A stretch of 64,000 bases of DNA, from the NCBI GenBank assembly GCA_022799035.1, contig JAAWNQ010000009.1:289-64288 (forward strand), given 5' to 3'. The translations under genes and the position numbers were made by a program. This stretch comes from Oscillospiraceae bacterium. Lineage in GTDB: Bacteria > Bacillota > Clostridia > Oscillospirales > Oscillospiraceae. The notes beneath the pieces were generated by a model, which had not been told where the DNA came from, did not search any database, and saw only the letters and a list, made by a program, of their open reading frames with translations. Below, one piece after another: positions 3,830 through 18,991 of this stretch (positions are counted from its first letter, which is position 1; the number at the start of each line of letters is the position of its first letter).

Positions 3830-4546
3830 TCAAGCCGAAGTCAGAGACAACCCCAAATGCTCTGCCAAGCCCCAGAGATCGTCAAAAACCACATCCGCCT
3901 GGGCCTGGACCTCCGGGACGGGAGGGACCTGGTCCGGGATCAGTACCGAATAGGCGCCCGACGCCACAGCCGCCAAAATACCGTTTTGAGAATCCTCCAC
4001 TACGGCGCATTCCGTAATGGGCAGTCCCAGCCGCTCCCCAGCGGCCAGGAAGATATCGGGGGCCGGTTTGGACTTTAGTCCCAGGTCCCCCGAGAGAACA
4101 GCCTGGAACCTCAAGGGGATATCCGCCGCCCGGAACAGGGTCTCCGCGTCCCGCCGGGGGCTGGAGGTGGCCAATGCGGTGGGGATCCCCGCCTCCCAGA
4201 GAGCGAAAAGCAGTTCCCCGGCCCCCGGCTTGGGCGGACCCGACGGCCCCGTCCACAGCGTTTTCGCCAGATTTGTCCGGTACTCGTAGACCCTTTGGGC
4301 CAGCTCCTCATCCCCGTGAAAAAAATCCACATAGGCCCGGGGCATGGTCCTTTGACTGCTGCCCGAGGTATGGAGAAACATGGCCTCACTGCCTGTAAAA
4401 CCGAACTCCTTCTCCGCCATCTTCCAGGTGCGAAGCCAAAACCCCTCGCTGTCAAAAAGGGTCCCGTCCATATCGAAGATAAACCCGTATATCTTTCTCC
4501 CCGAGGGGGTACAGAGAAACGGGGCGGCATTCTGTTCCAGGGACAC
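3830..4546 (-). CDS. HAD-IA family phosphatase (beta-PGM-like)
   Basis: FDMDGTLFDSE motif I, LATSS, KPAPD, VVEDSQNG; probable GTG start at 4546 after GGAGG (track start 4609 is longer). Confidence 0.85.
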   Translation of the reverse strand: MSLEQNAAPFLCTPSGRKIYGFIFDMDGTLFDSEGFWLRTWKMAEKEFGFTGSEAMFLHTSGSSQRTMPRAYVDFFHGDEELAQRVYEYRTNLAKTLWTGPSGPPKPGAGELLFALWEAGIPTALATSSPRRDAETLFRAADIPLRFQAVLSGDLGLKSKPAPDIFLAAGERLGLPITECAVVEDSQNGILAAVASGAYSVLIPDQVPPVPEVQAQADVVFDDLWGLAEHLGLSLTSA

Positions 4547-5614: not shown

Positions 5615-6034
5615 ATGAACCAGTTTGTCATTGCCACCCATTCCACCCTGGCCCAGGGCTTTACCCAGGCCATCCACTTCTTCTATCCCGAGGTGGAAAA
5701 CCTCCGCTTCCTCAACGCCTATGTGGAAAGCCAGGAGCTGGAGAAGGACCTGCGCTCCATTTTGGAGGATATCCGGGGAGAAAACATCGTTGTCCTCACC
5801 GACATTCCCGGCGGCAGCGTGAACCAGGTAGCCATGAAGCTCCAGCGGGAGTATGGCTTCCAACTGGCCGCGGGGATCAACCTGCCCATGCTGCTGGATC
5901 TGGTGTCCGAATCCCAGGACGTGGGTCCTGAAGCCCTTCGTTCCGCCCTGGACACCGGACGGGAGGGCATGGTCTATATGAACGACCTGACCCCGCCGGC
6001 GGAGCTCCCCCCGGAGGACGACGAGGAACTGTGA
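5615..6034 (+). CDS. PTS mannose/fructose/sorbose family EIIA
   Basis: FVIATHSTLAQG (phospho-His) and VLTDIPGGSVNQ motifs; ATG 5615 after GGGAGGG. Confidence 0.9.
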   Translation: MNQFVIATHSTLAQGFTQAIHFFYPEVENLRFLNAYVESQELEKDLRSILEDIRGENIVVLTDIPGGSVNQVAMKLQREYGFQLAAGINLPMLLDLVSESQDVGPEALRSALDTGREGMVYMNDLTPPAELPPEDDEEL

Positions 6035-6100
6035 CCGTTGGAGGGCAGAGCTCCCTCCTACCATATAATACCAAACCATATTGAAAGGGAGGAAACATGA

Positions 6101-6601
6101 ATGATCCTGATGACGCGAGCTGATGACAGACTGATCCACGGCATGGTGGCGGTCTCCTGGACTTCCCACCTGAAGCCCCAGACCATCCTGGTAGCCAACG
6201 ACGTCACCGCCAAGGATGAGTTCAAGTCCATGACCATGAAGATGGCCCAGCCCGCCGGGGTCAAGCTGATCATCAAGACCCTGGACGATTCCATCAAGGC
6301 CCTGAACAACCCTATCAACGACAACAAGCACATTTTCCTGGTGGTCGAGAGCGTGGCCGACGCCCTTTACATCTACGAGCGTATCAACAACAAATTTCAG
6401 CGTTTGAACGTAGGCACGGCAGGGGTCAATAAAAAGGAGGGAGAAGAATACATACCGACTCTGCCGCAGGTATTTATGACAGCCAAAGAATTTGAGTGCG
6501 CGGAAAAAATGGCTGCCGGCGGGGTGGAGATCTTCGCGCAGATCACCCCCACAAGAGAACGGATGGAGTTCAAGGACATTGAGAGAATCTTCAAAAAATA
6601 G
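6101..6601 (+). CDS. PTS mannose family EIIB
   Basis: RADDRLIHGMV motif, LNVG. Confidence 0.92.
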   Translation: MILMTRADDRLIHGMVAVSWTSHLKPQTILVANDVTAKDEFKSMTMKMAQPAGVKLIIKTLDDSIKALNNPINDNKHIFLVVESVADALYIYERINNKFQRLNVGTAGVNKKEGEEYIPTLPQVFMTAKEFECAEKMAAGGVEIFAQITPTRERMEFKDIERIFKK

Positions 6602-10854: not shown

Positions 10855-11511
10855 GTGAACAAACCTTTCCGCGCGGTCATTTTTGACATGGACGGGGTCC
10901 TGGTGGACTCTGAATGGCAATATCACCTCCGAAGACTTGATTTTCTCCGGGAGCATGGTGTAGAATTGCCACAGGAAACCCTTCCCCAGGTCATCGGCCG
11001 CCCCTACCAAAGCTATGTGGACATGGTCCTGAGCCTGGATGGAGTCTCCTGGACCCAGGAGGAATATACCCGCCTCTACGATGCCTATACCCAGCGAATC
11101 GGGCGGCTCCACTACGACCAATGCCTGTTCTCAGACGCCCCCGGCGTCCTCTCCCTTCTGAAGCGGAAGGGACTTCGTCTGGGTCTGGCCTCCTCCTCCC
11201 CCCGGAGGGCGGTCTCCCTCATGCTCTCCGACTGCGGCTTCGGGACTATATTTCACTGTGTCTTGGCCCAGGAGGACGTGGAGCAGGTCAAACCCTCCCC
11301 TGAGATCTACCGAAAAGCCGCCGCCCGCCTGGACCTCTCCCCTGAGGAGTGCGTGGCGGTGGAGGATTCGGTCCACGGCATCCGCTCCGCCCTGGACGCG
11401 GGGATGACCGTGGTGGCAAAGACCTCCCCCCATTATGAGCTGGACCAGTCCGCCGCCCACTACCACATCAGACAGCTTCAGGACCTGCCCCCTCTTCTGG
11501 AGCGGCTGTAA
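10855..11511 (+). CDS. HAD-IA family phosphatase
   Basis: IFDMDGVLVDSE, LASSS, KPSPEIY, VEDSVHG; GTG start 10855 after AAGGAGG. Confidence 0.88.
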   Translation: MNKPFRAVIFDMDGVLVDSEWQYHLRRLDFLREHGVELPQETLPQVIGRPYQSYVDMVLSLDGVSWTQEEYTRLYDAYTQRIGRLHYDQCLFSDAPGVLSLLKRKGLRLGLASSSPRRAVSLMLSDCGFGTIFHCVLAQEDVEQVKPSPEIYRKAAARLDLSPEECVAVEDSVHGIRSALDAGMTVVAKTSPHYELDQSAAHYHIRQLQDLPPLLERL

Positions 11512-12720: not shown

Positions 12721-12763
12721 AAAAAACAGCCCCAACCATCTCTACAGAATGGTTGGGGCTGTC
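12721..12763. terminator. Hairpin between convergent PTS locus and PRTase
   Basis: 14-bp stem acagccccaaccat/atggttggggctgt with A-tract on the left. Confidence 0.7.
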
Positions 12764-12789: not shown

Positions 12790-13398
12790 TCAAACCTCCA
12801 GGACAGGCAGCTCAAACAGGTGGTACAGGTTCTCCGGCAGGGTCACTCCCGCCTCCACGCTGATGACGGCATGGGCGGCGATCTCCGCCCCCGCCTTCCG
12901 GGCCAACTCCTGCAGGGCTCCGGTGGTCCCCCCGCCGCCGTAGACGTCGTCCAAAAGCAGGATCCGCTTACCCTGGAGGAATTCCACATCGTCGTCGGTG
13001 AGGGAGATGGTCTGGTCCTTGGGGGTGGTCACCGAGCGGTAGGTGGCCTCCACCCTGGCCCCTCCGGTACTCTTACGGGCCACCGCTGTCCGTTCCAGCT
13101 CAACGCCTTTTGCCTTGGACCAGCGCAGGGCGATGGCGTGGGCCAGGGCGTTGCTCTTGGCTACCGGATTCAGGATGGTGTCAAATTCCACCCCGGAATT
13201 CAGAAGTTTTTCCGTCAATTCCTCAGCGGCGGCCTCAATCAGGCTCACCTGACCGGAAATATCCAAAAATCCAACCATTCTTCCGCTAATCAGCTTAAAA
13301 GGAAGCACAAAAGTTTTCCCCGCCATTTTTACTTCCAGGTTTTTTCCCCCATTTTCGCCCTCTACGATCCGGGTCTTTTCCTGTCCAAACCGCTCCAT
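12790..13398 (-). CDS. Type I phosphoribosyltransferase (adenine/xanthine PRT-like)
   Basis: PRPP loop ILLLDDVYGGGGT; start ambiguous (13398/13407/13416). Confidence 0.8.
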   Translation of the reverse strand: MERFGQEKTRIVEGENGGKNLEVKMAGKTFVLPFKLISGRMVGFLDISGQVSLIEAAAEELTEKLLNSGVEFDTILNPVAKSNALAHAIALRWSKAKGVELERTAVARKSTGGARVEATYRSVTTPKDQTISLTDDDVEFLQGKRILLLDDVYGGGGTTGALQELARKAGAEIAAHAVISVEAGVTLPENLYHLFELPVLEV

Positions 13399-13495
13399 TT
13401 TCGCCATCCTTCCCATTTTTTCTGGTTACAAAAGAGTTACAAATCCCTTTTTTCTATTTTACCACAGCTTCCCTCCAAAAGCAACGCAGTCCCGC

Positions 13496-13535
13496 AAAAA
13501 GGTCCCGCCTCACCTTTCAGTGGGCGGGACCTTTT
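13496..13535 (-). terminator. Intrinsic terminator after amidohydrolase gene
   Basis: aaaaggtcccgcc(t)cac/gtgggcgggacctttt stem with A5 tract. Confidence 0.75.
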
Positions 13536-13551
13536 GTGTCCACAAAAACGA

Positions 13552-14802
13552 TCAGATCTCCTGTCCACCGCAGAAACGGCGGGCAATATTTCGGGAATCG
13601 CCGCAGTAGATAAGCCGCTGGAGCCGCTCAGCCAGAGTGTACTCCCGGTAGGAGCGAAGCCTCTCGTCCTCCAGGACCAGAGCGTCGAACTGGTAGCCCG
13701 GCTCAAAGCTGCCCACCTTGCCGAAAAAGCCGCCGCCCCCCTTGGTGGCCAGATAAAACGCGTCGGCGGCCGAGAGGGCCCCCTCCCGGGTCAGGGTCTT
13801 GGAGGCCTGGATGGCGGAGGCCATATTCTGGAACATATTGAGGCTGTGTCCCCCGCCGATGTCGCTGCCCAGTCCCACCGGGACCCCCAGCTCCAGGACC
13901 TTCCTCACCGGGAGGAACCGGTCCCCAGGAATGTGCTGGATGGCGTTGGGACAGTAGGCGATATAGACGCCCCGCCGGGCCATGAGTTCAAACTCCTGCT
14001 CCGTGGCATAGGCACAGTGGGCCATCACCGTAGGGGTCTGTCCGAACAGGCCGTATTTGTCCCAGACAAAGCCGTAGAGCTTCTCCACCGGAAACCGGTC
14101 CCGGACCATCTCCAGGTCAAAATCCCCCTCGCACATGTGGGACTGGACGGGAAGGTTCTCCTCCCGGGCCTTATTTCCCAGGAAATCCAGCAGCTCCTCC
14201 GAGGCGGCGGGGATAAACTCAGGGCTGAGGATATACCCCACCCTTCCCTTTCTCTCCCCGGCCCAGCTTATCAGGTCCAGGGTCTGGGCGACAGACTCCT
14301 CCGTCCCCTCCTGGGCCTCACCGAAGGCCCCATGGTCCGAGTTCATCTTGCCCACATAGGCCCCCAGGCCCTTCCTCCCCAGCCGCTCCATCAGGTCCTT
14401 CACCGGCTGGGGACCGGTGGCCCCCATGATGACGGAGCGGGTGATCCCGTTCTCCCACAGCGCCTCCACCAAGTCCTGGTTCACCTGGGCGGCGTACTGG
14501 GGATCGGCGGAGTACCGCTGTTCGGCAGGGTAGGTGCACTGGGTAAACCACTCATCCCCTGTACCGTCATAGCCCAGGCCCGCCGAGGGAAGCTGGGCGG
14601 CGTGGAGGTGCAGGTCGCTGAAGGCAGGGATGAGAAGGCTGTGGCCCAACTCCTCCACCGGATGATCTCTCAGCTCCGGGGGGAGGGTCGGGTATGTCCC
14701 CCGAACCGCGCCGTCCTCCTCCACCGCCACATAGCCCTGGGGGAGGGCGGTGAGGACTCCCAGCTTGGGAGAAAAGAGAATATCGCCGTGATAAAGCTTC
14801 AT
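13552..14802 (-). CDS. Guanine-deaminase-like amidohydrolase
   Basis: DLHLHAAQ, QSHMCE, MAHC, GLGSDIGGG, GSFEPGYQFDAL; but SPEF replaces the usual TPRF. Confidence 0.8.
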   Translation of the reverse strand: MKLYHGDILFSPKLGVLTALPQGYVAVEEDGAVRGTYPTLPPELRDHPVEELGHSLLIPAFSDLHLHAAQLPSAGLGYDGTGDEWFTQCTYPAEQRYSADPQYAAQVNQDLVEALWENGITRSVIMGATGPQPVKDLMERLGRKGLGAYVGKMNSDHGAFGEAQEGTEESVAQTLDLISWAGERKGRVGYILSPEFIPAASEELLDFLGNKAREENLPVQSHMCEGDFDLEMVRDRFPVEKLYGFVWDKYGLFGQTPTVMAHCAYATEQEFELMARRGVYIAYCPNAIQHIPGDRFLPVRKVLELGVPVGLGSDIGGGHSLNMFQNMASAIQASKTLTREGALSAADAFYLATKGGGGFFGKVGSFEPGYQFDALVLEDERLRSYREYTLAERLQRLIYCGDSRNIARRFCGGQEI

Positions 14803-14844
14803 GGTTCTTCCCTCCTTGCCCCGTTCCGGGGCTGTTTTTGGGGA

Positions 14845-16347
14845 TCATTTTTCCCGGTAAAGACCGGACAGTTTGTCATAGCAGGGCTTCAGGCTGGGAT
14901 AAAGCTCCCGGTAAAGGGCGTAGGCCCGGTCATAGACCTTGGCGTGGTCCGGGATGGGACGGTAATCCCGGTATTCCCCCAGAAAGCCCTGTATCTGCTC
15001 CCAGTCTGTAAAGACGCCGCCGCTCATTCCCGCCAGGAAGGCCACCCCCATGGCGCTGCCGGGGTGGGCGGGGAAGGAGCGGACCGGGCGGTTCAGCACG
15101 TCGGCGGCGATCTGGCACCAGAAGGAGCTTTTGGCTCCCCCGTTGGTGGCCAGGACCCGGGTGGGGGTATACCCCGCCTCCTCCAAAAGCTCCACATGAT
15201 GGCGGAATCCGTAGATCACCGACTCCAGCACCGCCCGGAACAGATGCTCCCGGGTGTGGGAGAGGGTAAGGCCAAACAGAACTCCCCGGGCCTGGGGGTC
15301 GAACAGAGGCGTCTTCTCCCCCAGGAAGTAGGGCAAAATGATAAGGCCGTCGGAGGCGGGGGGCAGCTTTTCCGCCTCCCGGTCCATCCTCTGAAAGACC
15401 TGGGGATCCTCGGTACCCAGAATATCCTTGGTGAGCCATTTCACCAGGGAGCCGCTGGCCGCCATACAGCCGTTGATCAGATAGTGGCCGGGAACGATAT
15501 GATAGTCAAAGAACAGCTTGGGATGGGTAGCCAGCCGGTCGGTGCAGAACAGGATATCCCCCGCCCCGCCGAACTTGATGAGCAGCTCTCCGGGCCGGGT
15601 GATCCCCGCCGCCAGGGTGGAGGCCACATGGTCGGCGCTTCCGGCGATGACCGGGATCCCCTGGGGAAGCCCCAGGGACTCTGTTCCCACGGTGGTCCCC
15701 ACCACCTCCCCGGGCTGGGACACCGGGGGAAGAAGTCTGGGGGAGAGGCCAAACCGCTCCATATACTCGGGGATCCACTCCCCCCGGTGGATGTCGTAGA
15801 GGCCGCTCTCGGCGGCCCAGTTCAGCTCCACCTGCCGCTTGCCGGTAAGCCGGTAGACCATGTAGTCGTAGGAGCCCATGACCGTCCTGACCCTGGCAAA
15901 GACCTCCGGCTCCTCCTCCTTGACCCACAGCAGCCGGGGCAGCACATGCTGGGCGTTGGTATATCCCCCGGTCCGGCGGTAAAGCTCCTCCTGGGGCAGC
16001 TCCCCCCTCACCCGGTCAAGCTGGTCCACCGCCCGGGCGTCGTTCTGCTGGATGGTATTGCGGACCGGCTCCCCCTTTTCGTCCAGGAGGACGATGGCGG
16101 GGACCATGCCACTGCAGCCGATGGCCCGAAGGCCGGACAGCTTATCCCCGTGCTCCCCGGCGATCCGGGCCAGGGTGGCCGCGGCGTTGTCCCACCAGAC
16201 CTCCGCCCTCTCCTCCGCCCAACCGGGACGGAGGGAGAGAAGGTCGTGGCCCTGGGTCTCCTGAGCCGTCAGCTCCCCATCCTCTGAGATAAGGACCGTC
16301 TTCACTCCTGTGGTACCCACGTCGATCCCCATGGCATACCGCTTCAT
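14845..16347 (-). CDS. FGGY-family carbohydrate kinase (xylulokinase-like)
   Basis: GIDVGTTGVK, QQNDAR, LPYFLGEKTP, NGGAKSSFWCQIAADV. Confidence 0.9.
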   Translation of the reverse strand: MKRYAMGIDVGTTGVKTVLISEDGELTAQETQGHDLLSLRPGWAEERAEVWWDNAAATLARIAGEHGDKLSGLRAIGCSGMVPAIVLLDEKGEPVRNTIQQNDARAVDQLDRVRGELPQEELYRRTGGYTNAQHVLPRLLWVKEEEPEVFARVRTVMGSYDYMVYRLTGKRQVELNWAAESGLYDIHRGEWIPEYMERFGLSPRLLPPVSQPGEVVGTTVGTESLGLPQGIPVIAGSADHVASTLAAGITRPGELLIKFGGAGDILFCTDRLATHPKLFFDYHIVPGHYLINGCMAASGSLVKWLTKDILGTEDPQVFQRMDREAEKLPPASDGLIILPYFLGEKTPLFDPQARGVLFGLTLSHTREHLFRAVLESVIYGFRHHVELLEEAGYTPTRVLATNGGAKSSFWCQIAADVLNRPVRSFPAHPGSAMGVAFLAGMSGGVFTDWEQIQGFLGEYRDYRPIPDHAKVYDRAYALYRELYPSLKPCYDKLSGLYREK

Positions 16348-16366
16348 AAACCTCCCCCTTCCTTGT

Positions 16367-17023
16367 TTACAGCAGGCCCTTTTCCTCCAGGGTCCCGCGC
16401 AGCTCCTGATAGCTTCCGGCCTCCAAGTCGGCCCCGGTGATATCCTGACGGATGGCCGAGGCCCGGAGGGCCGCCACCGTCATACCCGCCGCCTTGCCCG
16501 CGGCGATACCCACAGGGGAATCCTCCACCACCAGACAGTCCCCGGCCTGGGCCCCCAGGAACCGGGCGGCGGTCAGGTAGGGCTCCGGGGAGGGCTTGGT
16601 ATTGCTCACCATATCCCGGCACACAATGGCGTCGAACCGGCGGACCATGCCGAACCGGTCCAGGGCGGAGAGAACGCTCTTACTGCTGGTGGAGGAGACC
16701 AGGGCGGTCCCGATCCCCCGTTCCCTCAGGTGATCCAGGAATTCCTCCGCCCCGGGGAACAGGGCCAGCTCCGGAGAGTCCAGATAGAAGCTGCCGCAAT
16801 GACGGGCCTCCTCGGCCAAAAACTCCTGAGGGGTCAGGGGAAGATCGTGGGTCCGGACCATGGTCTCTGCGATGGAGACGCTGGTCTTTCCCACAAACTG
16901 CTCCAGCTCCTCCGGAGAGTACTCCACCCCGTAGTGGGCCATGTGCCGCTGGAGGCGCTTCAGATAGAGGGGCTCACTATCCATGAGCACCCCGTCCATA
17001 TCAAAAAGAAAATAGTTCTTCAT
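16367..17023 (-). CDS. HAD-IA family phosphatase
   Basis: LFDMDGVLMDSE, KPSPEPY, VVEDSPVG. Confidence 0.88.
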   Translation of the reverse strand: MKNYFLFDMDGVLMDSEPLYLKRLQRHMAHYGVEYSPEELEQFVGKTSVSIAETMVRTHDLPLTPQEFLAEEARHCGSFYLDSPELALFPGAEEFLDHLRERGIGTALVSSTSSKSVLSALDRFGMVRRFDAIVCRDMVSNTKPSPEPYLTAARFLGAQAGDCLVVEDSPVGIAAGKAAGMTVAALRASAIRQDITGADLEAGSYQELRGTLEEKGLL

Positions 17024-17027
17024 CCGC

Positions 17028-17843
17028 TTACTTCAGACCCTCCCGGAACTTGTGGACCTCCTCCATAAAGGCCAGGACCCGGGATTTGTCCACCTGGTTT
17101 TCAAACACGCCGTCATACTTAAAGGTAGTGCCCACCACGGCGGCGTCGGCCACCGCGAGCTGGTTGGCGATGGTATCCTTCCGGCAGCCGGTGTTGGCGA
17201 TGACCACGGTGCCGGGAACGGTCTTTTTCACCTCGGCCAGGATCTGAGAGTCGGCGGCCACCCCGGCGGTAAGGCCGGAGACACAGAGAGCGTCGGCCTT
17301 GCAGTTGAATACGGTGCTCTTGGCGATCTGGGTGATATCCCGCTGGGCCAGATACTTGGCCGCCTCGGGGACGATGTTGAACAGCAGCTTTACATCCTCG
17401 GCGCCGATGGCCTGACGGTGGCGGGAGACCTCCCCGTAGTTGGTGTTCCACAGGCCGAAGTCGCTGGCGTAGACCCCGGTGAAGATCTCCCGGACAAATT
17501 TGGCCCCGGTGGCGGCGGCCAGATCCAGGGAGGCGGCCCCGTCCCACAGGGCGTTGACCCCGAAGGGGATCTTGATCTCGCTCATCAGCTCGCCAATGAC
17601 CCGGGCCATGGCGGCCACCGTCTCCTTACGCACGTCGGTGAGGTAGGGAAGGCTGAACTCATTGGAGAACATGACCGCGTCCACGCCCCCCTCCTGAAGG
17701 GCCAGGAAATCCTCCCGGGCCTTGTCCACCACCCAGGTCATACCCTTCTGTTTGTCATAGCCGGGATCGCCGGGCATGGCCTGGAGATGACACATGGCGA
17801 TGATGGCCTTCTCTGTCCCGATCACTTCTTTCAACCAACTCAT
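17028..17843 (-). CDS. BtpA/SgcQ family TIM-barrel protein
   Basis: IIAMCHLQAMPGDP, GGVDAVMFSNEFSLPY, FGVNALWD, DALCVSG, AAVVGTTFK. Confidence 0.88.
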   Translation of the reverse strand: MSWLKEVIGTEKAIIAMCHLQAMPGDPGYDKQKGMTWVVDKAREDFLALQEGGVDAVMFSNEFSLPYLTDVRKETVAAMARVIGELMSEIKIPFGVNALWDGAASLDLAAATGAKFVREIFTGVYASDFGLWNTNYGEVSRHRQAIGAEDVKLLFNIVPEAAKYLAQRDITQIAKSTVFNCKADALCVSGLTAGVAADSQILAEVKKTVPGTVVIANTGCRKDTIANQLAVADAAVVGTTFKYDGVFENQVDKSRVLAFMEEVHKFREGLK

Positions 17844-17884
17844 GTTTGTACGCTCCTTCCGATTTCTTTGATGTAAAATATGTC

Positions 17885-18676
17885 CTACGCCAGCTCCAGC
17901 TTGGCGCCTTGGGACTCCAAACGCTCCCGCTTCTCCGGGGCAAGCCCCCGGTCGGTGATGATCCAGTCTATCTCCGCAAGGCGGCAGACCTGGACCGGGG
18001 CCGCCTGTTCAAACTTGGTATGGTCGGCCAGAAGCACCACCCGTTTGCCCGCCCGGACGATGTTCCGCTTGATCCCGGCTTCAAAGAATCCGGTGTTGGA
18101 CACTCCGAAGTCACCGCTCACCGCGTCGGCGGTGAGGAAGGCGGTGTCCACCCGAAGCTGGCTGATAAAGTCCTCCACCATGCCCCCGATCAGAACCTTT
18201 TGGTTGGTCCGCTTCAATCCCCCTGTGAGGACCACGGTGGTGGTGGGATCAAACTCCACGTTGGCCGCCAGATAAAGGTCGTGGGTGATGACGGTAAGGC
18301 CCTTTTTCTCCGCCAGACACAGGGCGAGCTGGTAGGCGGTGGTGCCCGAGTCCAGGATGACCACATCCCCCTCCGACACGTACCGGGCGGCGGCTTGGGC
18401 GATGCACCGCTTCTCCTCCAGCTGGAGGCTCATTTTCTCGTCATAGACCCGCTCGAACATGCTCTTTTCCTGGGGGAAGATGGCCCCTCCGTGGGTCCGC
18501 TTTACCAGTCCCCGGGCGGCCAGGTCGTCCAGGTCCCTGCGGATGGTGGATTCGGATACGTGGAACAGGAGGGCCAGGTCCCTGATGGACACGCTGCCCC
18601 GCTCCTGAACACAGCGCAGCACGTTTTGCAGACGATCCTCCGGGATCGGGTAGTCGGGCAATTGCTTTTCCCTCAT
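17885..18676 (-). CDS. DeoR/GlpR family transcriptional regulator
   Basis: VSESTIRRDLDDL, RTHGGA, ILDSGTT, LADHTKF; ATG 18676 after GGGAGAGG. Confidence 0.92.
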   Translation of the reverse strand: MREKQLPDYPIPEDRLQNVLRCVQERGSVSIRDLALLFHVSESTIRRDLDDLAARGLVKRTHGGAIFPQEKSMFERVYDEKMSLQLEEKRCIAQAAARYVSEGDVVILDSGTTAYQLALCLAEKKGLTVITHDLYLAANVEFDPTTTVVLTGGLKRTNQKVLIGGMVEDFISQLRVDTAFLTADAVSGDFGVSNTGFFEAGIKRNIVRAGKRVVLLADHTKFEQAAPVQVCRLAEIDWIITDRGLAPEKRERLESQGAKLELA

Positions 18677-18991
18677 GCTCTCACCTCTCCCTCCGATTAT
18701 ACCGCAGGGTGGAATATTTTGCAATCATTTTTTGATTCTTCCATAAATCTATCATATTCTTCCACACAGTTTGCAAGCAGAGGCAAAAAGGCCCCCGCCC
18801 TTGGCTTTGACGGGCCTGTTTTCCTCTGTGGGCGGAAGGCAGGGACCCCTTTTCCCCTCTTTTTGACCAAACCGTGAAAAAGAAGACAATGAAAATTTAT
18901 GATTTTCGTAAAATTTGGATTTACTCCTTTCTCATTTTATGCTATGATACAGTTACGAAATTTTGGGATATATTTCAAAGGAAGTTGAGCT

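Follow-up and report, generated by a model that had tools for sequence, protein, structure and literature searches.

Why does a guanine-deaminase-like gene lie in one operon with a set of sugar-processing genes? The question is raised by a six-gene block on the minus strand (12790-18676) of a 64,000-nucleotide (nt) stretch of DNA from an Oscillospiraceae bacterium (contig JAAWNQ010000009.1), hereafter called the window. The block encodes a DeoR-family regulator, a barrel protein of the BtpA/SgcQ family, a HAD hydrolase, an FGGY-family sugar kinase, an amidohydrolase and, behind a terminator, a phosphoribosyltransferase (PRTase). An earlier note on this DNA had proposed joint catabolism of the base and the sugar of a non-canonical nucleoside. 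We find that the amidohydrolase belongs to a separate guanine-deaminase-like subfamily whose genes recur beside BtpA, FGGY and purine-nucleoside genes. We give an about even chance to the reading that the block serves to scavenge purine nucleosides under DeoR control, one branch handling the base and the other the sugar, with the importer and the glycosidic-bond enzyme encoded elsewhere in the genome.

A separate guanine-deaminase-like subfamily

Gene identities, operon layout, recurrent linkage and the subfamily signature are direct observations. The gene at 13552..14802 (minus strand, like the whole block) encodes an amidohydrolase (Amidohydro_1, 133 bits). Guanine deaminase is its best NCBIfam model, and its score of 263.7 bits lies below the cut-off of that equivalog (TIGR02967, 375.4). 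The best solved relative, the guanine deaminase of C. acetobutylicum (2I9U), aligns from end to end (3e-89). The ligand and catalytic residues of the GuaD cluster are in place: HxH, Gln70, Glu225, His262 and Asp314 are conserved, and the motifs HLHAAQ, HMCEG, AHC and GSD, all found in the window enzyme, do not vary within the subfamily. In this cluster (amidohydrolase subtype III), the Gln, Glu, His and Asp residues run a 1,6 conjugate addition (PMC12828455, PMC13054789). Because these four residues are invariant, the sequence makes it very probable that the enzyme is active and hydrolyzes a 2-amino-4-oxo heterocycle in an altered pocket. Since the enzyme class acts on heteroaromatic amines, an aminated sugar, which had also been put forward as the substrate, is unlikely.

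The signature of the subfamily was taken from an alignment of 120 homologues, 69 of which are source-named or canonical guanine deaminases and 49 of which belong to the subfamily closest to the window enzyme. All 69 canonical sequences have the arginine of the TPRF motif, whereas all 49 subfamily members, including the window enzyme, have glutamate instead (SPEF). The canonical motifs HxHAPQ, SEN and CPxSN are likewise replaced, by HxHAAQ or HSSQ, SEG and a different CP loop (CPNAI). The SPEF-type subfamily is monophyletic, and a single branch with 99% support splits it from the canonical group. We presume, from the human and E. coli structures, that the TPRF arginine contacts the O6/N7 edge of guanine. 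Relatives specialized on alkylated guanine exist, namely an N2,N2-dimethylguanine hydrolase (PMC13054789).

Gene neighborhoods of SPEF-type loci

Ten SPEF-type lineages with at least 5 kb of flanking sequence were compared. Six of the ten have BtpA, 5-6 have an FGGY kinase (two different clades being represented) and 4 have the PRTase; a Bmp-type ATP-binding cassette importer (Bmp-ABC), RihC or DeoD is found in 5, and Xau/BUF1-type microcompartment genes in 4. The same six genes are shared by the window lineage, L084 and L092 (deaminase identities of 99%, 84% and 73%, respectively). The locus of L090 (69%) consists of DeoR, BtpA, HAD, FGGY, Bmp, an ABC ATPase, two permeases, the amidohydrolase, a GATase1-like gene and RihC. 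A Pseudoflavonifractor metagenome-assembled genome carries an identical BtpA, and the L090 RihC reaches 432 bits against an equivalog cut-off of 382. L097 (50%) has PfkB and DeoD genes divergent from Bmp-ABC, the amidohydrolase and, after it, a PRTase orthologue (63% identity). In L178 (49%), DeoD and a metallophosphoesterase stand with the amidohydrolase, whose stop is overlapped by the start of an FGGY kinase just 31% identical to the window kinase.

The amidohydrolase of four further lineages (L093, L094, L176 and L177; 49-52%) lies between an isochorismatase-like gene and UbiX/UbiD in Xau/BUF1-type microcompartment loci, with DeoR, BtpA, Bmp-ABC and RihC added beside them in L094 and L177 and an FGGY gene at the locus edge in L176. 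Outside these ten, a locus with a BtpA of 86% identity (L086) has PfkB and DeoD divergent from DeoR, BtpA, HAD, FGGY and Bmp, after which the contig ends. Nucleoside importer/glycosidic-bond enzyme genes are thus found with the SPEF enzyme in L090, L094, L097, L177 and L178. The DeoD proteins of these relatives score above cut-off with both the DeoD-type subfamily model and the TIGR00107 equivalog. As both RihC and DeoD are ordinary by profile, the simplest substrate would be a purine ribonucleoside; nothing in these loci shows a non-canonical one, and this part of the earlier proposal is not borne out.

A metagenome scan with the SPEF-type profile gave almost only canonical guanine deaminases, which served as the negative control. 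Around 51 canonical TPRF loci with flanking sequence of 5 kb or more, BtpA, FGGY, HAD and PRTase genes were each found 0 times and Bmp once, weakly. For BtpA, the difference (6/10 vs 0/51) corresponds to a Fisher p value of 3.8e-6, and to 1.1e-3 when the four closest lineages are counted once (3/7). Nucleoside-linked BtpAs fall into at least two separate well-supported clades of the BtpA tree, and the kinases into two FGGY clades, implying that the linkage was assembled more than once. The coupling of sugar genes to a purine-deaminase-like gene that had been noticed in the window therefore recurs in independent lineages, in other gene orders and with other BtpA and FGGY clades.

The four Xau/BUF1-type loci (L093, L094/L095, L176 and L177), on contigs from gut or anaerobe sources, are trimmed. 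They contain the isochorismatase-like gene, the SPEF amidohydrolase, UbiX, UbiD, three BMC-H genes and EutN, and add an adenine-deaminase-like gene, a cyclase and DUF1989; neither dihydropyrimidinase-like nor formimidoyltransferase genes were in range in them. In two of them, the locus is fused to a nucleoside unit made up of DeoR, BtpA, Bmp-ABC and RihC. Among the control loci, only L115 (9992-21249) has purine-breakdown neighbors around its canonical deaminase. In this canonical Xau locus, which has no SPEF-type gene, the TPRF guanine deaminase is accompanied by a PucR regulator, a cyclase, amidohydrolases, an isochorismatase-like gene, UbiX/UbiD and shell genes. This single case suggests that the SPEF and TPRF types are interchangeable as xanthine feeders.

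The BtpA/SgcQ barrel

The gene at 17028..17843 encodes a phosphate-binding TIM barrel of the BtpA/SgcQ family, with full-length profile scores above the curated cut-offs (PF03437, 297.9 bits vs 30; TIGR00259, 317.9 vs 153.4). The cut-off of the photosystem I biogenesis BtpA equivalog NF045918 is not reached (140.9 bits vs 400). Aligned with E. coli K-12 SgcQ, the product of the gene annotated sgcQ, the protein is 69% identical over 268 residues, at full length and with no gaps. Conservation is strong in general, with thousands of homologues at 70-80% identity. A sequence search against the PDB gave no solved relative, and our literature search on SgcQ/BtpA function returned mostly unrelated acronyms and no paper assigning a reaction, PMC13343008 being the sole useful one. 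The family thus appears without an assigned reaction, as had been said before.

In the AlphaFold2 model (mean confidence score, pLDDT, of 91), the nearest folds are HisF, GGGPS/PcrB, KDPG aldolase, ThiE, TrpA and HisA at about 15% identity. By this model, they seem to be generic phosphate-binding barrels only, from which no reaction can be read. Among the invariant residues, acid/base, arginine and lysine side chains predominate, with glycine-rich loops after strands 7 and 8 in addition. On the modeled fold, they would fit a sugar-phosphate isomerase, epimerase or lyase alike, without choosing among them. A class I aldolase is not favored because no conserved lysine was found on strand 6 when the model strands and invariant residues were compared.

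We also collected BtpA loci from Bacillota, Synergistota, Chloroflexota, Spirochaetota and Citrobacter, 80 in all from species genomes; 79 of these were usable (L001 was too short). A deaminase or PRTase gene lies within 8 kb of BtpA in 0/79 of these loci, and a Bmp importer or RihC gene near it in 0/79. Recurrent partners are DeoR regulators (44 loci), M42 peptidases (35 loci) and FGGY kinases of three clades, in addition to ribose-type ABC importers, RPE-like epimerases, Gat-type components of the phosphotransferase system (PTS), short-chain dehydrogenases/reductases (SDR) and a second HAD type. The earlier note had made its proposal depend on the deaminase being conserved beside BtpA in relatives. 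This is not the case for the BtpA family at large; the link holds only in a small BtpA subclade and in the deaminase's own subfamily.

Several of the BtpA loci deserve mention in their own right. An operon seen in L088 (8001-15918) and L089 has two BtpA paralogues, one 82% identical to the window protein and the other very divergent; a ribose-type ABC importer lies between them and an FGGY kinase after them. In Cohnella and Paenibacillus (L013, L022, L025, L032 and L042), an orthologous FGGY kinase (~60%) and BtpA share a neighborhood with a Rieske/LigXa_C oxygenase, gamma-glutamyltranspeptidase, SDR, a glyoxalase-fold protein and an iron-containing alcohol dehydrogenase, suggesting that in aerobes the substrate is sugar-like and either N-linked or O-methylated. 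A creatininase-family gene (5792-6592) is located between BtpA and the Bmp importer gene in L177, and peptidase/amidase-fold genes (M42, M20, gamma-glutamyltranspeptidase) occur in other BtpA operons too. These neighbors hint at amide- or amine-linked sugar substrates for the BtpA family.

Kinase, HAD hydrolase and phosphoribosyltransferase

The FGGY-family kinase (14845..16347; FGGY_N 170 bits, FGGY_C 113 bits) has the XylB equivalog TIGR01312 as its best-scoring NCBIfam model, although the 337.2 bits obtained are below the cut-off of 380.25. Its best solved relative is an uncharacterized FGGY kinase of R. rubrum (3IFR, 3e-127), well ahead of E. coli XylB (198 bits). The possibility that it is a plain xylulokinase, which would have spoken against the earlier proposal, therefore seems unlikely from the profile score. 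Orthologues of 56-63% identity stand beside BtpA, SDR and a non-orthologous HAD gene in 12 non-nucleoside loci. Since BtpA and a HAD protein accompany the kinase there as well, the recurring unit would consist of kinase, barrel and phosphatase.

The HAD-IA hydrolase (16367..17023; HAD_2, 123 bits) is of the beta-phosphoglucomutase/YqaB type. It passes TIGR01509 (74.5 vs 29.4) and contains motif I, DMDGVLMDSE, in its translation. The beta-phosphoglucomutase equivalog scores 83 against a cut-off of 189, and no other equivalog cut-off is reached. With pseudouridine-5'-phosphatase as its best solved relative (4e-23), it is probably a sugar-phosphate or nucleotide phosphatase. Its orthologues are confined to the closest nucleoside-linked loci. 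Two more HAD-IA genes, about 32% identical to it, are located in the neighboring PTS/SIS/NanE cluster (window 3977-4483 and 10879-11382).

The last gene (12790..13416) encodes a divergent type I PRTase, with a probable start at ATG 13398 that gives 202 amino acids (aa), the length at which its relatives are called. Only the general Pribosyltran domain passes (29 bits vs 26.3), and the adenine and xanthine PRTase models are not reached, the best being PRK07322 with 78.7 bits against 143. The phosphoribosyl pyrophosphate (PRPP) loop LLLDDVYGGGGTT is present, and the remote solved relatives are adenine PRTases and adenine phosphopsicosyltransferase. The link of this gene to the operon had been considered weak on account of the terminator. 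It proves to be stronger than that, as four lineages, with deaminase identities as low as 50%, retain the PRTase together with the deaminase.

Layout, signals and transcripts of the block

Six co-oriented genes, a terminator and a separate PRTase promoter had been described for the block, and all were recovered where they had been placed, including the six minus-strand open reading frames (ORFs). The gaps between the five operon genes are 41, 4, 19 and 42 nt, and 135 nt follow before the PRTase gene. The first gene (17885..18676) encodes a DeoR/GlpR-family regulator of 263 aa (HTH_DeoR 60.6 bits; DeoRC sensor domain 153.5 bits), for which no NCBIfam equivalog cut-off is reached. Its ORF is open to TTG 18724, and near-identical contigs call the gene at 263 aa from ATG 18676. 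A promoter-like site, TTGCAA-17-TATAAT, precedes it on the minus strand (18696..18724; 10/12 sigma-70 consensus matches). As this site overlaps the upstream TTG of the long ORF, ATG 18676 is favored as the true start.

An intrinsic terminator lies between the deaminase and PRTase genes (13496..13535, minus strand), with a hairpin of -33.2 kcal/mol (z -3.5), AAAA before it and UUUUU after it. It was detected by folding; a consensus terminator scan missed the hairpin owing to a bulge. Flanked by an A-run (5') and a U-run (3'), the hairpin could work in both directions, although no plus-strand gene ends there. The PRTase promoter (13456..13484, minus strand), composed of TTGCTT, a 17-nt spacer and the extended -10 element TGgTAAAAT, was read by eye and is not listed by the consensus scan. 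A terminator-like hairpin with a T-run follows the PRTase gene (12721..12760, minus strand; AGCCCCAACCAT...ATGGTTGGGGCT then GTTTTTT). Known RNA families, riboswitches included, were not found in the block. The block is flanked by an F-type ATP synthase operon on one side and the PTS/SIS/NanE cluster on the other, and is near-identical in a mouse-gut Oscillospiraceae assembly.

Mouse-gut metatranscriptome contigs with 100% identity touch all six genes at low depth, and one of them (14613-14992) spans the FGGY/deaminase junction. One metatranscriptome contig of run X28 joins 15979 to 17192 with 1212 nt skipped; the shorter side has 22 letters, and the join is probably an assembly artefact. Run X25, which seemingly reads across the terminator, was not used, since its RNA status was guessed, its contigs are of 157 kb and its strain is 95-99% identical. 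No transporter or nucleosidase had been seen in the block, and the 64-kb window holds none either: no homologue of the relatives' transporter, nucleosidase, phosphorylase, PfkB kinase or microcompartment genes was found in it (i.e. no Bmp, RihC, DeoD or PfkB).

Discussion

In the purine-nucleoside scavenging that we propose, a DeoR-type repressor, probably sensing a sugar phosphate, would control an enzyme core in gut Oscillospiraceae. The starting compound would be a purine ribonucleoside (in the simplest case guanosine, or something closely similar), split by enzymes encoded elsewhere in the genome, whose counterparts in relatives would be the Bmp-type ABC importer and the RihC hydrolase or DeoD phosphorylase of the same operon. 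The SPEF-type amidohydrolase may then hydrolyze the 2-amino group of the guanine-like base, towards xanthine, and the separately promoted PRTase may convert the released or deaminated base to its nucleotide. In other relatives, where the amidohydrolase sits in a Xau/BUF1 locus, the compartment would ferment the base instead. On the sugar side, the FGGY kinase would phosphorylate the released pentose or a derivative, the SgcQ-type barrel would convert the phosphate ester by isomerization, epimerization or lyase chemistry, and the HAD enzyme would remove or move a phosphate. All of these substrates, and the order of the steps, are what we infer from the loci.

An independent experimental hint comes from E. 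coli. The genes sgcABCEQX are induced 16-25-fold in a group of nitrogen-containing carbon sources (PMC13343008), of which inosine is treated as a member in a figure legend of the same study, with ribose-1-phosphate marked as an entry point. The operon also rises on starvation alongside a 563-fold accumulation of hypoxanthine (PMC13343008). These induction conditions, taken with the 69% identity to SgcQ, support the link to purine nucleosides. The authors themselves propose no nucleoside role for sgc and speculate on a pentitol role (PMC13343008).

Several observations weigh against our proposal. There is no importer or glycosidic-bond enzyme within the 64 kb, and 79 of 79 usable BtpA loci of other species are without deaminase, PRTase, Bmp and RihC. 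The SgcQ-type barrel (56-85% identity) is also found in PTS/RPE/M42, ribose-type ABC/FGGY and SDR/HAD operons; serving several types of sugar operon, it is not nucleoside-specific. Four of the ten SPEF lineages are closely related to one another, and the sample of loci followed contig size rather than a random design. The RNA-labeled contigs are without strand information and may contain DNA. Ribose needs only ribokinase, which leaves the purpose of an FGGY/BtpA/HAD route unexplained, and the E. coli deletion mutants ΔsgcC and ΔsgcX of the Keio collection grew normally (PMC13343008). The nucleoside reading of the earlier note is partly right, but it is the deaminase, and not BtpA, that supports it. 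The importer and the RihC or DeoD gene that the block lacks are found in the operons of relatives.

Could the block instead hold two unrelated neighboring units with no common substrate, i.e. an sgc-like sugar- or polyol-phosphate module (DeoR, BtpA, HAD, FGGY) next to a purine salvage pair (guanine deaminase, PRTase)? The many sugar contexts in which the BtpA family occurs without a purine gene would agree with this, as would the terminator and promoter that set the PRTase apart and the shared ancestry of the four closest lineages, whose common gene order counts once. We regard it as fairly unlikely, because the association recurs with a second BtpA clade (L094, L177) and in differing gene orders, a second FGGY clade is translationally coupled to the SPEF enzyme (L178), the count around canonical guanine deaminases is 0/51, and an RNA contig bridges the FGGY and deaminase genes. 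A plain pentose operon, with a xylulokinase or ribulokinase that responds to xylose or a pentitol and with BtpA and HAD in accessory roles, seems very improbable. It would account for XylB being the best-scoring model (337 bits) and for the pentitol role speculated on for sgc (PMC13343008); however, the XylB cut-off is not reached, the solved structure nearest to the window kinase is that of an uncharacterized kinase rather than of XylB, and the block and its flanks (atp operon, PTS/SIS cluster) have no isomerase, dehydrogenase or sugar importer.

The deaminase itself allows two further readings. It could be an enzyme of the clostridial xanthinase pathway, e.g. for the 4-aminoimidazole deaminase step predicted for XauE, with the PRTase salvaging an imidazole intermediate and the block being a fragment of a purine-fermentation supercluster. 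The position of SPEF enzymes (49-52%) between an isochorismatase-like (XauC-type) gene and UbiX/UbiD in four Xau/BUF1-type loci, which hold no other candidate for this step, fits such a role; an amidohydrolase of the same broad deaminase group is predicted for it (PMC6620236), and glutamate in place of arginine would suit a cationic aminoimidazole. However, the Gln that stabilizes the exocyclic oxyanion of 2-amino-4-oxo substrates is invariant, whereas aminoimidazole has no such oxygen. Moreover, Alkaliphilus XauE is closest to DadD-type deaminases and the window enzyme to guanine deaminase 2I9U, the window has no microcompartment or UbiD gene, and the TPRF enzyme of L115 suggests interchangeable xanthine feeders, so that we consider this reading unlikely.

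Quite unlikely, in our estimate, is a non-canonical nucleoside, that is, a modified guanosine (m7G, m2G, queuosine) or one with a non-ribose sugar, to which the altered pocket and the non-ribokinase route would be due. The exchange of Arg for Glu with HAPQ to HAAQ/HSSQ, SEN to SEG and CPxSN to CPNAI across a monophyletic clade, the precedent of the N2,N2-dimethylguanine hydrolase (PMC13054789), an FGGY kinase in place of ribokinase and the remote similarity of the PRTase to adenine phosphopsicosyltransferase all lean towards it. Yet RihC (equivalog) and DeoD (subfamily model and TIGR00107 equivalog) of the relatives pass their cut-offs, the importer is of the common Bmp/PnrA type, no demethylase or other modification-specific enzyme is conserved, and FGGY and BtpA proteins of the same clades also serve operons that have no nucleoside genes.

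A wider proposal may also be made, which we hold only tentatively and as rather doubtful. In this proposal, an SgcQ-type BtpA, a sugar kinase (FGGY or PfkB) and a phosphatase would form an undescribed route for the ribose or N-ribosyl part of purine nucleosides, E. coli sgc would belong to nucleoside-derived pentose-phosphate metabolism, and the SPEF enzyme would bring a new specificity to the guanine-deaminase cluster, its substrate being a guanine analogue or an intermediate of purine breakdown and not guanine itself.

The locus matters for several reasons. SgcQ/BtpA is a large and very conserved family without a known reaction, 69% identical between E. coli and a Clostridium, and the locus with its relatives ties it, together with a phosphatase and one clade of FGGY kinases, to the scavenging of purine nucleosides by gut anaerobes. 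This linkage supplies a short list of substrates to try, whereby SgcQ/BtpA and the new deaminase subfamily become directly testable. New as well is the subfamily itself, in which the pocket arginine is changed to glutamate and which is tied to PRTase salvage or to a purine-fermenting microcompartment. As purine turnover in the gut is relevant to the urate balance of the host, knowledge of these enzymes would sharpen models of purine removal and recycling by gut bacteria.

Comparison with known systems

The block resembles E. coli K-12 sgcXBCQAER (KpLE2 island) in its SgcQ-type BtpA, the adjoining DeoR-family regulator and an upstream step that yields a phosphorylated sugar. Unlike sgc, it is without the Gat-type PTS IIA/IIB/IIC (SgcABC), the RPE-like SgcE and the M42 peptidase SgcX, which stand beside SgcQ in the Citrobacter and E. 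coli loci, and has FGGY, HAD, a deaminase-like enzyme and a PRTase instead. As to the spread of sgc, sgcQ is present in 1657/5426 complete E. coli genomes, always chromosomal, and the Citrobacter youngae gene is 96% identical to the E. coli copy at the DNA level, suggesting recent horizontal spread of the island.

With the guanine deaminases (E. coli GuaD, human GDA 2UZ9, C. acetobutylicum 2I9U), the window enzyme has in common the fold, the metal ligands and the catalytic Gln/Glu/His/Asp; it differs from them in the Arg to Glu exchange in TPRF, other pocket changes, a separate clade and different gene neighbors. Operons for purine-nucleoside uptake and cleavage combine a Bmp/PnrA-type ABC importer with DeoD or RihC, and B. 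subtilis nupNOPQ is an example of a bacterial purine-nucleoside uptake operon. The same genes are found in the operons of the relatives, whereas the window has no importer or cleavage gene, and FGGY, BtpA and HAD replace or supplement ribokinase and phosphopentomutase.

In the archaeal pentose bisphosphate pathways, nucleoside-derived ribose phosphate passes through a nucleoside phosphorylase, a PfkB ribose-1-phosphate kinase, ribose-1,5-bisphosphate (R15P) isomerase and Rubisco, or a HAD ribulose-1,5-bisphosphate (RuBP) phosphatase and an aldolase. The succession of kinase, barrel or isomerase and HAD phosphatase is similar in the block, and its HAD protein weakly matches the RuBP 5-phosphatase model (42 bits vs a cut-off of 330). 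The block is, however, without R15P isomerase and aldolase, its kinase is FGGY and not PfkB, and no pathway model cut-off is reached, so the likeness appears to be one of resemblance only.

Xau/BUF1 microcompartment loci, for which Axen 2014 is reportedly the source, have the SPEF subfamily (49-52% identity) as a fixed member in four cases, next to isochorismatase-like, UbiX/UbiD, shell, adenine-deaminase-like, cyclase and DUF1989 genes. The Xau pathway was predicted by Ravcheev 2019 (PMC6620236), and the gene cluster and enzymes of the xanthinase pathway were reported in 2023 by Tong et al., according to PMC12507026. In the window, tblastn with BMC-H and UbiD of L177 gave no match. The window is thus unlike the Xau/BUF1 loci in having no shell genes or UbiD, and its clade pairs the SPEF enzyme with the PRTase, which points to salvage of the base rather than its fermentation.

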